Source of the DNA: Nitrososphaeria archaeon
GTDB lineage: Archaea > Thermoproteota > Nitrososphaeria > JACIWG01
Reading direction: 5' to 3'
DNA: 64,000 nt
Assembly: GCA_963760525.1 (NCBI GenBank)
Contig: CAVXDT010000003.1
Coordinates: 18,448-82,447 of the forward strand
A program made the position numbers and the translations under genes. This document shows positions 28,664 to 61,888 of the stretch, piece after piece; the first letter of the stretch is position 1, and each line of letters opens with the position of its first letter. The notes under the pieces were generated by a model that was given only the letters and a program-made list of their open reading frames with translations, did no database searches and was not told the origin of the DNA.

Positions 28664-29068
28664 ATGAGTTATAGAAGAGGAGGTTATGGAGGTTACAGGA
28701 GATACGGTTCCAGATCGGACACTCCAAAACCTGTTAAAGTCGGAGAGGAATACGATGTCGAAATAAACGAAGTCGGATCAAAAGGTGACGGAATAGCAAA
28801 GGTAAAGAACTTTGTTGTCTTTGTCAACGGAGCTAAACAAGGTGAAAAATTAAAAATAAAGATAACCGATGTGCGAGATAGATTTGCAACTGCTGAAAAG
28901 GTAACTGGAGTAGAAGCTGAAGCTGAGGGAACAGGCGAGAAGAAAACTCTTCCTGAAGAAGCACCAAAAGACGTAGAAGGTACTGAAGGAGAGGAAGAAG
29001 ATACTGAAGAAGAGGAAGGAGACGTAGAAGACACAGAAGACACAGAAGACACAGAAGACACAGAATAG
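28664..29068 (+). CDS. TRAM-domain RNA-binding protein with an RGG/YGG-rich N-terminus and an acidic (E/D/T) C-terminal tail
   Basis: The core PVKVGEEYDVEINEVGSKGDGIAKVKNFVVFVNGAKQGEKLKIKITDV matches small archaeal TRAM proteins. The N-terminus is MSYRRGGYGGYRRYGSR. The tail ends EDTEDTEDTEDTE. Confidence 0.8.
   Translation: MSYRRGGYGGYRRYGSRSDTPKPVKVGEEYDVEINEVGSKGDGIAKVKNFVVFVNGAKQGEKLKIKITDVRDRFATAEKVTGVEAEAEGTGEKKTLPEEAPKDVEGTEGEEEDTEEEEGDVEDTEDTEDTEDTE
29027..29062 (+). repeat. Four perfect tandem 9-bp repeats (GAAGACACA x4) encoding (EDT)4
   Basis: Read directly: gaagacaca gaagacaca gaagacaca gaagacaca, immediately before the TRAM gene stop codon. Confidence 0.95.
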
Positions 29069-57208: not shown

Positions 57209-57218
57209 GAGGTGATCC
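57209..57218 (+). promoter_or_regulatory. Extended Shine-Dalgarno sequence (GAGGTGATCC) ahead of rtcB
   Basis: This 10-nt stretch is complementary to the conserved 16S rRNA 3' end (...GGAUCACCUC). The ATG at 57222 follows 3 nt later. Confidence 0.5.
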
Positions 57219-57221
57219 AAG

Positions 57222-58726
57222 ATGGCAAGATATGCACCTGTAAAAATATCAGAAGTGGAATATGAAATTCCTAAATCAGCTAAAGAGGGGATGCGTGTCC
57301 CGGTCCGAATATATGCAAATCATCAATTACTGCAAAAGATGACTGAAGATAGAACTATAGAGCAAGCAATAAATGTAGCTCATTTGCCTGGAATACAGAA
57401 GTTTTCTATTGTCCTCCCCGATGGCCACGAATAGAGCTTAAACTCTCGTGAGGGCTATGGTTTTCCAATTGGGGGGGTTGCAGCAACAAACTATGATAAC
57501 GGAGTCGTCTCTCCTGGGGGTGTCGGCTATGACATTAAGGAAGTCGAGAGCCTTAAAGCTTTCACTTTCGTGTAAACTGCGGAGTTCGCATTATCCGCAC
57601 CGATCTCTCGGTAAGCGATGTTCGTCCGAAGCTTAAAGAGCTAGTGCACAGGCTGTCAATAGAAGTTCCAAGTGGCTTAGGTAGTAAAGGTCAGGTTAGA
57701 CTAAGTTCCAGTGGCCTAGATGATGTACTGAATGAGGGTGTTGACTGGGCTGTAACAAATGGATATGGTTTTTCAGAGGATATAGAATTCTGTGAAGAGA
57801 ATGGGCATATGAAGTCAGCTGATGCTAGTGCGGTCAGTCCTATGGCAAGGCAGCGTGGAGCTCCACAAGTAGGCACTTTAGGCAGTGGGAACCATTTCTT
57901 GGAAATAGGTGTTGTTGACAGAATATTCAACGAGAATGCTGCGAAAGCTTTCGGTATCGTTGGCGCTGGTCAGATTATGTTGTGGGTTCATACTGGCAGC
58001 CGTGGTCTAGGACATCAGGTTTGTAGCGATTATCTTAGAGTAATGGAACAGGCTTCCCGCCATTACAATATTGTGTTGCCTGATCGTGAGCTTGCCAGCG
58101 TTCCCGTCCAAAGTAATGAGGGTGAAAGATATCTACGTGCCATGGCCGCTGCTGCGAATTTTGCTTGGGCTAACCGTCAGATGATTACTCATTGGATGCG
58201 TAGAGCATTTTCAAAAACCTTTAGCGTAGATGAAAGGGAATTGAAACTAGTATATGACGTTGCTCATAATATTGCTAAGGTTGAAGAACATGATATTGAC
58301 GGAAAAAAGATGAAGGTTGTTGTTCATCGCAAGGGTGCTACTAGGGCATTCCCTAAAGGTAAGAACGAGGTTCCTCTAAAGTACCGCGATCTTGGCCAAC
58401 CTGTTCTTATCCCCGGTTCCATGGGTACATCAAGTTGGGTCTTGTTAGGTAATGAACTGTCGATGCAGAAGAGTTTTGGTAGTACTGCTCATGGTGCAGG
58501 TCGTATGATGAGTCGCGCTGGTGCTCTCAGAGCAAAAAGTGGCTTTGAGGTTAAGAGAGACCTAGAGCATCGCGGCATATTATTGGAAGCTGCTGACATC
58601 AAAGTCGTAAGCGAGGAAGCTCCTGAAGCGTACAAGGACGTTGACATGGTTGCTGAAGTGTCTGATAATGTTGGTATTGCAACTAAAGTCGCTAGGATTG
58701 TTCCCATAGGTGTGGTCAAAGGTTAA
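57222..58726 (+). CDS. rtcB: RNA-splicing ligase RtcB, encoded in three exons (57222..57431, 57453..57537, 57576..58726). The spliced product is 481 aa.
   Basis: The three consecutive ORFs carry RtcB sequence in colinear order. Exon 1 ends ...SIVLPDGHE. Exon 2 encodes [28 protein letters not shown]. Exon 3 continues NCGVRIIRT...GSGNHFLE...[11 protein letters not shown]...[10 protein letters not shown]...HRKGATRA...GSTAHGAGR... Removing 21 nt and 38 nt restores one continuous frame. Confidence 0.85.
57432..57452 (+). other. BHB (bulge-helix-bulge) intron 1 in rtcB, 21 nt
   Basis: Outer helix AUGGC (57421-25) pairs with GCUAU (57454-58). The central 4-bp helix is CACG (57426-29) with CGUG (57447-50). 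The 3-nt bulges are AAU (57430-32) and AGG (57451-53). The inner helix is AGAG/CUCU with loop CUUAAA. Cutting after the 2nd bulge nucleotide on each strand removes exactly 57432-57452, whose first codon is the in-frame TAG. Confidence 0.75.
57538..57575 (+). other. BHB-type intron 2 in rtcB, 38 nt (relaxed form with a weak outer helix)
   Basis: The central 4-bp helix is ACAU (57532-35) with GUGU (57570-73). The 3-nt bulges are UAA (57536-38) and AAA (57574-76). The inner helix is 6+6 bp, GGAAGU(C)GAGAGC with GCUUUCACUUUC, with loop CUUAAA. Cutting after the 2nd bulge nucleotide removes 57538-57575 and yields GAC AUU AAC UGC, which is D-I-N-C. Confidence 0.7.
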
Positions 58727-60859: not shown

Positions 60860-61888
60860 CTATGAATTGTTTTTAAGTCCTTTGTTGACCTCTATTCTTC
60901 CATCTTTTATCACAAATTTGATATTGTCTCTATCTTGAATGGTTTTTATGTCTTCAAGGGGGTTGCCCTTGACTGCTATCAGGTCCGCTGCCTTTCCCCC
61001 TTCAAGTGTTCCAGTTTTATGTAAAAGGTTGCATGCCTCAGCTGCGTTTTTTGTGGCTGCGATTATAGCTTCCAAAGGAGTAAAATTGCATTTCTCAACA
61101 AGTAGTTGAAGTTCCATTGCGTTTAATCCATACTTGAGCATTGGTGTGCCTGTGAAGTCGGTTCCAGCTGCTATCTTCACACCATACTTCTTAGCTATTG
61201 CTAAGTTTTTAACGTGAATATCAACCACTTTTTGTGCTTTTTCAAGTCCCCATTCGGGTGTACCTGCTTCTCTTCCTTCTTTGACTATTTGGTGGACTAT
61301 TGACAGAGTAGGTGTAAGTATTGTGTCATTTGTCTTCATCATTTTAGCTCCTTCCTCGTCTAAAAATATCCCATGTTCAATAGTTCTTACTCCTCCTATC
61401 AGGGCGTTTTTTATTCCTTGAGTGCCTTGAGCATGAGAAGCAACATATGTTCTTACCTTTCTAGCCTCATTTACTATCGCGGTGATTTCTTCTATTGTGA
61501 ACTGTTCATCTTCAGGTTTATCCCTTTCAGACATGACTCCTCCGGTAGTAAAAATCTTAATGAAGTCCGCTCCTTCTCTAAGCGTCGATCTAGCACCTCT
61601 AATGCATTCATCGACACCGTCACATATCAAGTCTCCGAAACCAAATTTGAATTTGCTTCTTTCTTTCACTATTTGCAGTGGAAAATAGTGCTCATCTCCA
61701 TGCCCAAAAGTTTGTGAAAGTGCTCTGTGTGCTGTGAGAATTCTGGGACCTCCCACGTATCCCTGCTGCATAGCTGTTCTTAACGGTACTCCATTTAAGC
61801 TAGACATATCCCTTACTGTTGTGAAGCCTGATTCTAATAGTTGTTCGATGTCTTTAGCTGCTTTAAGAAGTAGTAACTGAATTATGGA
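60860..61888 (-). pseudogene. Truncated metal-dependent amidohydrolase (imidazolonepropionase/Xaa-Pro-dipeptidase-like superfamily). The N-terminal beta-sandwich and HxH metal motif are missing.
   Basis: The frame is open back to 61888 and reads SIIQLLLLKAAKDIEQLLESGFTTVRD-MSSLNG..., with no start codon before the ATG at 61807. GFTTVRD normally follows the HxH motif by about 40-60 residues. Only about 40 nt separate the end of the frame from the divergent lon-like gene. Confidence 0.55.

Follow-up and report, generated by a model that had tools for sequence, protein, structure and literature searches.

The window analyzed here, a 64-kilobase (kb) stretch of 64,000 nucleotides (nt) from contig CAVXDT010000003.1 of an uncultured soil/sediment Nitrososphaeria archaeon, contains the RNA ligase gene rtcB, whose product seals transfer RNA exons, at 57222-58726 on the forward strand, broken by insertions of 21 nt and 38 nt. 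The most probable reading, at about 85%, is that both are introns of the archaeal bulge-helix-bulge (BHB) type, carried by the rtcB precursor messenger RNA (pre-mRNA), which the splicing endonuclease EndA would cut and an RtcB-type ligase would seal. The strongest single argument is covariation in the second intron, which points to selection on its BHB structure, including the helix formed between exon and intron.

In the proposed mechanism, the local fold would pair four exon nucleotides shortly upstream of each 5' splice site with four intron nucleotides shortly upstream of the 3' splice site, exposing two 3-nt bulges on opposite strands. EndA, likely of the (alpha-beta)2 type found in this phylum, would cut after the second nucleotide of each bulge. 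The cuts of this enzyme produce 2',3'-cyclic phosphate and 5'-OH ends, which in archaea are joined by RtcB. An RtcB-type 3'-phosphate/5'-OH ligase would then join the exons, and the 21-nt and 38-nt introns would probably be circularized by the same type of ligase. Active enzyme would come only from the spliced mRNA.

The restored gene and its BHB motifs

Deleting both insertions in silico yields 1446 nt, i.e., 481 codons and a single terminal stop. When compared with Pyrococcus horikoshii RtcB (PDB 1UC2, 481 amino acids), the spliced protein presents an E-value of 5.7e-193 over residues 8-481, in an alignment that is colinear and free of gaps across both junctions. Against the Pfam family RtcB (PF01139), it scores 563 bits, with a cut-off of 27. 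The Mn2+ and guanosine monophosphate (GMP) ligands of the P. horikoshii enzyme are D95, C98, H203, H234, H329 and H404 (PMC10630183), and their counterparts here are D97, C100, H205, H237, H329 and H404, the four histidines being encoded in exon 3. All known catalytic ligands are thus present, and the restored product is a full-length member of PF01139, above threshold and with its metal and GMP ligands conserved.

Before splicing, an in-frame TAG at 57432-57434 directly follows the GAA codon that ends exon 1, and the second insertion shifts the frame between the codons of the Mn2+ ligands Asp97 and Cys100. Splicing would therefore be needed for active RtcB. The first open reading frame (ORF) of the unspliced transcript encodes 70 amino acids. 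Were intron 1 alone removed, translation would stop at the UAA formed by the final three nucleotides of intron 2, which is in frame for unspliced read-through and is kept in the related lineage L024 described below. Intron 2 sits between two metal ligands, and a product without exons 1 and 2 could not be active. Exon 2 is in the frame of exon 1, and exon 3, which opens with NCGVRIIRT..., is in a different one. A 62-amino-acid ORF at 57448-57636 lies in another frame and is unrelated.

An earlier reading of the window, made from its letters without database searches (the sequence-only reading), had placed the insertions at 57432-57452 and 57538-57575, with a TAG opening the first and a frame shift caused by the second. 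It had also restored a single 481-codon RtcB frame and limited the product of unspliced mRNA to a 70-residue fragment. All of these claims are borne out by the sequence, by in-silico splicing and by the match to 1UC2. Its description of the gene as spread over three ORFs is correct for three frame segments and incorrect for three start-to-stop ORFs, given that exon 2 has no start codon of its own.

Position 57222 is the real translation start, marked by a Shine-Dalgarno-like sequence that the sister lineage L017 keeps with one change. Signals of this type are complementary to the 3' end of archaeal 16S ribosomal RNA (rRNA). Gene calls in NCBI, JGI, ENA and Logan assemblies include the exact 70-amino-acid ORF of exon 1 (the P0121 cluster). 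The coordinates of the gene and of its motifs are presented in Table 1.

Table 1. Parts of rtcB and of its two BHB motifs, in window positions (bp, base pairs).
Feature	Position	Strand	Description
Shine-Dalgarno-like GAGGTGATCC	57209..57218	+	sequence read; ATG 3 nt downstream
rtcB exon 1	57222..57431	+	codons 1-70, last residues ...LPDGHE, final codon GAA
Intron 1	57432..57452	+	21 nt, phase 0, TAGAGCTTAAACTCTCGTGAG
rtcB exon 2	57453..57537	+	GYGFPIGG...GVGYDI and first base of Asn99
Intron 2	57538..57575	+	38 nt, phase 1, splits Asn99 codon A/AC
rtcB exon 3	57576..58726	+	last two Asn99 bases to Gly481, TAA stop at 58724-58726
BHB motif 1, strict hBHBh'	57421..57458	+	sequence read, geometry scan, folding
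Motif 1 outer helix h	AUGGC 57421-25 / GCUAU 57454-58	+	5 bp
Motif 1 central helix H	CACG 57426-29 / CGUG 57447-50	+	4 bp
Motif 1 bulges	AAU 57430-32, AGG 57451-53	+	3 nt each
Motif 1 inner helix h'	AGAG 57433-36 / CUCU 57443-46	+	4 bp, loop CUUAAA
BHB motif 2, relaxed HBh'	57531..57577	+	sequence read, geometry scan, folding
Motif 2 outer helix h	G57531-C57577	+	one base pair
Motif 2 central helix H	ACAU 57532-35 / GUGU 57570-73	+	4 bp including one G-U
Motif 2 bulges	UAA 57536-38, AAA 57574-76	+	3 nt each
Motif 2 inner helix h'	GGAAGU 57539-44 / ACUUUC 57564-69	+	6 bp, then unpaired C
Motif 2 second inner helix	GAGAGC 57546-51 / GCUUUC 57558-63	+	6 bp, loop CUUAAA

The rule of cutting after the second bulge nucleotide is deduced from the canonical 37/38 intron site, and a literature search for it gave no explicit statement. 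In a canonical BHB, the four exon nucleotides before the last two of the exon pair with the four intron nucleotides before the last two of the intron, and the central helix of transfer RNA (tRNA) precursors is described in the same orientation (PMC4090602). Both insertions present this arrangement, with two 3-nt bulges on opposite strands and a 4-bp central helix between exon and intron, and the cut rule, applied to their bulges, takes out precisely 57432-57452 and 57538-57575. A scanner for BHB geometry recovers exactly the two insertions as introns. The helices and bulges named in the sequence-only reading are exact, and the scan reproduces its observation that a cut rule taken from the fold alone gives the boundaries defined by the protein. 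On both strands of the window, motifs of the quality of intron 1 occur at 4.4e-6 per position pair and motifs of the quality of intron 2 at 6.3e-5, which yields a joint chance of ~1e-9 when allowing for the 2-3 equivalent boundary placements fixed by the protein alignment.

The strict hBHBh' form is defined by at least two Watson-Crick pairs in each outer helix (PMC7714728), and only intron 1 presents it. Intron 2, with 1 bp in h and 6+6 bp in h', fails the strict definition and falls in the recognized relaxed HBh' class. At 21 and 38 nt, both insertions are of ordinary size next to archaeal tRNA introns, which span 11-129 nt and mostly have medians of 12-25 nt (PMC4090602).

Relatives, selection and intron history

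The rtcB gene is intronless in two Nitrososphaeria genome representatives (L001 and L002, 80-81% amino-acid identity), in a Nitrosocosmicus metagenome-assembled genome (MAG; L003) and in a Logan contig (P0001/L023, 85% identity). In a DNA alignment with the first three, a clean gap of 21 nt stands opposite intron 1, and at site 2 the sequence GAYATCAAYTGYGG is continuous in the intronless relatives. Because these relatives read through both positions, the insertion sites are cleanly defined. No neighboring genes are shared with L001 and L002, and since the neighborhoods differ, the orthology of these two copies is judged by sequence similarity alone.

A sister lineage was reached through a truncated call of 349 amino acids (P0011, 95% identical), and comprises six contigs from six samples (L017-L022). 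All six carry both introns at unchanged positions, and the gene order around the introns is conserved (HAD hydrolase, 70-amino-acid ORF, RtcB fragment, glycosyltransferase). Intron 2 differs by one loop-closing change, A to G, and intron 1 by 0-1 substitution, the single change being found in one contig (L019, ~position 1217). This change, CUCU to CUCC inside intron 1, turns the A-U pair beside the 5' bulge into an A.C mismatch, and may be a polymorphism that is tolerated or a sequencing error.

Querying with the 70-amino-acid exon-1 peptide led to a third lineage through P0122 (110 amino acids, 86% identical), whose tail, ...GVGYDIKVVEGYQAFAAV*, is read-through into the site-2 intron. In the four contigs of P0122 (L024-L027, from ENA and JGI), intron 1 is absent and a 38-nt intron is found at site 2, with sequence AGGTGGTCGAGGGCTATCAGGCCTTTGCTGCCGTATAA. 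The sequence-only reading had suggested orthologues as a check on intron presence and absence, and they show the insertions to be clean, with both states found among the relatives. Counting the window, the six contigs and the four, the insertions occur in eleven independent contigs, which excludes an assembly artefact.

Between the window and L024, 13 of the 38 positions of intron 2 differ, yet all 17 pairs are kept in the three distinct sequences, i.e., 51/51 paired cells (100%). Double-sided changes include C-G to U-A in the central helix, the exon side of which is the synonymous change GAC to GAT, as well as A-U to U-G and A-U to G-C; four further pairs underwent one-sided changes via wobble. 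As a control, sliding the 3' partner strand by 1-3 columns left 33-53% of cells paired, and random substitution retained all pairs in 4-105 of 200,000 trials (2e-5 to 5e-4), depending on the transition bias. Given these compensatory changes, the BHB of intron 2 is argued to form in vivo. At site 1, the synonymous choices GGC and TAT flanking the intron make the outer helix fully paired in both lineages that carry it. Of the three closest relatives that lack intron 1, L001 and L024 present GGT and TAC, yielding one A.C mismatch, and L002 presents GGT and TAT, with which the outer helix is still fully paired, G-U replacing G-C.

In comparison with L017, the whole gene presents a synonymous rate (dS) of 0.234, a nonsynonymous rate (dN) of 0.020 and a dN/dS of 0.087. 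For exons 1 and 2 the values are 0.077, 0.009 and 0.115, and for exon 3 they are 0.281, 0.023 and 0.083. In comparison with L024, dS in exons 1 and 2 is saturated (51/69 sites changed) and dN is 0.078, so that dN/dS is not computable. All three lineages are free of additional stops and indels over the 1446 nt. Judging from these comparisons, the frame under purifying selection is the spliced frame. The dS in comparison with L017 is far lower in exons 1-2 than in exon 3, which could be due to extra RNA-structure constraint near the introns or to a recombination boundary. The introns also appear more conserved than synonymous sites, with 1 change in 59 nt against ~13 expected from a dS of 0.23; this was not relied on, since the expectation drops to ~4.5 with the local dS of exons 1-2.

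A neighbor-joining tree of the first 305 RtcB residues presents the topology ((window, L017), (P0001, L024)), with the other Nitrososphaeria sequences outside. This suggests intron 2 is the older of the two, probably gained once at the base of the clade and precisely lost in the P0001 lineage; the alternative is two gains at one phase-1 site. Intron 1, confined to the window and L017 lineages, is by the same comparison young. Intron 1 (57432-57452) aligns without gaps to the 3' half of intron 2 (57553-57571), with 15/19 identical positions (TAGAGCTTAAACTCTCGTG vs TAAAGCTTTCACTTTCGTG), and 4 of 5000 shuffles score equally. The hairpin loop CUUAAA is common to both introns, and the diverged L024 version of intron 2 gives no alignment with intron 1. 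This hints that intron 1 may have been copied from intron 2, which is taken as a lead only, because both sequences are constrained to be hairpins ending in a helix strand. A dispersed repeat or miniature inverted-repeat transposable element (MITE) was considered as the source of the introns and discarded, each intron occurring only once in the window even when up to 3 mismatches are allowed.

Possible self-dependence and competing explanations

If this rtcB encodes the only RtcB-type ligase of the cell, new RtcB would need inherited RtcB, forming a positive feedback loop. The loop would hold only if no other ligase can serve the rtcB mRNA. A tblastn search of the 64-kb window returned no second RtcB-like sequence. 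The combined proposition that a sole rtcB reseals its own message, making its expression autocatalytic and potentially bistable, and that intron 1 was copied from intron 2, is tentative, and we are more inclined to doubt it than to accept it. If true, the copying would be a trace of BHB-intron mobility in protein-coding genes, e.g., by reverse splicing and subsequent retro-integration.

Several observations weigh against the insertions being spliced BHB introns. Cleavage and ligation are what we infer from sequence comparison, and a search of 5.8 billion predicted proteins turned up no near-identical fragment in spliced or intronless form. A junction-spanning peptide query for spliced complementary DNA or intronless alleles also found nothing above 74% identity. 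None of the 20 ORFs scanned in the window is an EndA, and intron 2 depends on an endonuclease of relaxed specificity, because its outer helix is a single base pair. The sequence-only reading had guessed such an enzyme, and the guess fits the literature, in which Thaumarchaeota carry (alpha-beta)2 EndA and only that type and epsilon2 cut relaxed motifs (PMC5829648, PMC4090602). Intron 1 is represented by near-identical copies only and is too young for covariation, and its sole variant, that of L019, weakens h'. The self-dependent loop would be risky for the cell, which hints at a second ligase.

The folding energies of the free RNA are a further point of this kind. For intron 1, the BHB structure has -10.4 kcal/mol versus a minimum of -13.9 kcal/mol, and the minimum-energy fold keeps h and h', with a central-helix probability of ~0.3. 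For intron 2, the values are -11.2 versus -21.1 kcal/mol, with a central-helix pair probability of ~0.05 in a 71-nt context; in a 141-nt context, the minimum-energy fold includes ACAU/GUGU stacked on the hairpin. Weak folding of the free RNA is expected, because bulges are energetically penalized and the motif is recognized when protein-bound. The sequence-only reading had named a BHB pairing that is not competitive as grounds for refutation. This is partly true, as the central helices are weak in free RNA, and not decisive, as the compensatory changes in intron 2 argue against refutation. The result is hence a caveat rather than a refutation.

The explanation that best survives next to a self-sealing rtcB concerns the ligase alone: the exons may be sealed by another enzyme, either an additional rtcB paralogue free of insertions or an RNA ligase of another kind, in which case no loop exists. 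The part of the genome inspected is 64 kb, within a source contig of 229 kb, and since an obligate self-dependent loop would be fragile, a back-up is plausible on general grounds. However, the tblastn search of the window is negative, most archaeal genomes, as far as is known, have a single rtcB, and the interrupted copy is under strong purifying selection and hence not redundant. We consider a second sealing enzyme unlikely, with a chance that still deserves to be kept in mind.

A very improbable explanation is that ribosomes bypass the insertions during translation, in the style of T4 gene 60 or mitochondrial byp elements, with no RNA splicing. Insertion 1 lends itself to this to some extent: peptidyl-tRNA-Glu would take off at GAA (57429-31), just before a UAG and a hairpin, and land on the synonymous Glu codon GAG (57450-52), a near-match that would give an identical product. 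Insertion 2 has no matching landing codon, with AUU at take-off versus GUA before AAC. Moreover, a conserved and compensated exon-intron helix with 3-nt bulges on two strands is the signature of an endonuclease substrate, and under bypassing the 5-bp outer helix between the exons flanking intron 1 would have no role. Translational bypassing is not known in archaea.

It is also extremely improbable that the gene is a decaying or silenced pseudogene with insertions that resemble BHB introns by chance. Decay would fit the in-frame stop and the frameshift that this essential gene carries. Nevertheless, a dN/dS near 1 and accumulating disruptions, as decay would produce, are not what is found: the ratio is low overall and in exons 1-2 too, the gene has persisted through synonymous saturation since the split from L024, three lineages have kept 1446 nt without further stops or indels, and the joint chance of the BHB geometry is itself minute. 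The low dN/dS and the intact frame exclude a decaying pseudogene.

An assembly or sequencing error, such as a chimeric join or an indel, has next to no probability: although many truncated public RtcB calls are frameshifts, deletions or duplications, the 21-nt and 38-nt insertions recur at identical sites in the window and in six contigs, each from a different sample, four more contigs carry a diverged version of 38 nt, and the assemblies come from ENA, JGI and Logan.

Other interrupted RtcB calls were considered as intron candidates. P0130, P0132, P0124, P0255 and P0252 were rejected because their DNA presents a deletion or long-read/indel frameshifts. Judged from protein sequence only, P0126 and P0131 resemble frameshifts, whereas P0123, P0125 and P0127 stay candidates, the last of them ending in what is presumably a common chimeric artefact. 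In truncated calls on contigs of Nitrososphaeria and other archaea, i.e., L148 (~700-730), L149 (2001-3445), L150 (~1090), L151 (~2300-2335) and L152 (~2205-2215), the defects are a ~22-nt deletion, multiple long-read frameshifts and single-base indels, and none of these five has a BHB-like insertion. Broken rtcB calls in public assemblies are thus frequent and have trivial causes, and the recurrent clean insertions differ from them in kind. Two long calls, P0008 (636 amino acids) and P0010 (654 amino acids), were rejected as intein-bearing RtcB: both have internal tandem duplications on ~3-kb contigs, in which ~160 residues from NCGVRLLR... are repeated, and this looks like an assembly artefact, not an intein. 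A metagenome pattern for 12-42-nt insertions at site 2, TATGAYATHA N{12,42} AYTGYGGNGTNMG, matched at least 120 stretches; among the matches listed, one was in an rtcB (L083), by chance and in an uninterrupted gene.

In the rest of the window, scanning both strands for other BHB-split genes with the geometry scanner and ORF restoration returned noise only, i.e., spurious joins of adjacent genes, such as 1283-1317. No tRNA genes or Rfam families were found in the window. Tandem repeats at 28968-29065, with 21-nt units and perfect 9-nt units (AGAAGACAC, 4.4 copies), are purine-rich on the + strand and sit where the ORFs 28664-29068 (+) and 28693-29061 (-) overlap. An amidohydrolase ORF at 60860-61807 (-) matches PF01979 from residue 8 onward at profile positions 67-344 only, so its true start may lie upstream or its N-terminal part may be missing.

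Significance and comparison with known systems

BHB introns in archaeal coding regions are regarded as almost unique to cbf5, whose pre-mRNA intron was reportedly described by Watanabe in 2002 and Yoshinari in 2006. The cbf5 gene of Crenarchaeota carries its BHB intron in the coding region (PMC2738675, PMC7714728). The cbf5 genes of Cenarchaeum and Nitrosopumilus are listed as intron-free, and introns predicted in other genes were never confirmed (Yokobori 2009, PMC2738675). A 2020 study of endonuclease substrates in Haloferax still named cbf5 as the sole further BHB intron on record (Schwarz 2020, PMC7714728), in agreement with the rarity, and with the status of cbf5 as the established case, that the sequence-only reading had stated. 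Full-text literature searches returned no description of a BHB intron for rtcB or for any other thaumarchaeal protein-coding gene, and cbf5 is the only confirmed coding-region case in the searchable literature.

The gene described here would add a second host gene, in mesophilic Nitrososphaeria, a different phylum-level lineage, with two introns in one gene. Because close relatives differ in which introns they carry, the gains and the loss can be dated. Since the host gene encodes the ligase of its own pathway, autocatalytic gene expression could be studied here in a natural setting, as could the tolerance of cells for selfish or neutral introns in essential genes. There is also a practical consequence: gene callers split these loci into fragments of 70 and 349 amino acids, so that surveys of MAG quality or metabolism may count essential genes as absent or broken. 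Avoiding this would take a gene finder that recognizes BHB introns.

The closest known system is cbf5 itself. In both genes, a short BHB-bounded intron lies in the coding region, the host belongs to the TACK archaea and has, or is expected to have, a hetero-oligomeric EndA, the product acts in RNA processing, and the intron is scattered over the lineages, having been gained or precisely lost between close relatives. The differences are the host gene, the Nitrososphaeria lineage, the two introns instead of one, and the fact that the interrupted rtcB encodes the enzyme expected to finish the splicing reaction. Splicing of cbf5 was demonstrated experimentally, whereas that of rtcB is predicted from sequence. 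In Haloferax volcanii, the HVO_1309 mRNA has a BHB intron in its 5' untranslated region, and its removal affects expression (PMC7714728). Like the predicted rtcB case, it is an mRNA substrate of the archaeal splicing endonuclease outside tRNA and rRNA. The HVO_1309 intron sits in an untranslated euryarchaeal leader and leaves the reading frame intact.

The rtcB introns share their motif definitions, sizes, cut rule and occurrence as several introns per gene with the tRNA introns of Thermoproteota/Thaumarchaeota, in which relaxed motifs likewise need (alpha-beta)2 or epsilon2 EndA and gain by transposition has been proposed. Non-canonical and multiple archaeal tRNA introns, in the forms hBHBh', HBh' and hBH, were reportedly described by Marck and Grosjean in 2003 and Sugahara in 2008. 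Unlike tRNA introns, those of rtcB have an mRNA host, with no tRNA body to aid recognition and with frame and stop codons that matter.

RtcB genes are also known as hosts of inteins; P. horikoshii PH1602 reportedly carries one. Inteins in RtcB are mentioned in the literature (PMC10710043), and rtcB thus accommodates, there too, intervening elements whose removal is a condition for activity. However, inteins are removed at the protein level and span ~150-500 amino acids, whereas the rtcB elements are 21 and 38 nt long, non-coding, and would be removed at the RNA level.

Finally, eukaryotic HAC1/XBP1 offers a parallel in the form of a short mRNA intron removed without a spliceosome, by a protein endonuclease acting at stem-loops. 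There, IRE1 acts as endonuclease together with Trl1 or RTCB, and in metazoans sealing is by a ligase of the RtcB family. As would be the case for rtcB, splicing alters the frame and switches on the active protein. The endonuclease and the RNA motif differ, and the HAC1/XBP1 message encodes a transcription factor, whereas the message described here encodes the ligase.

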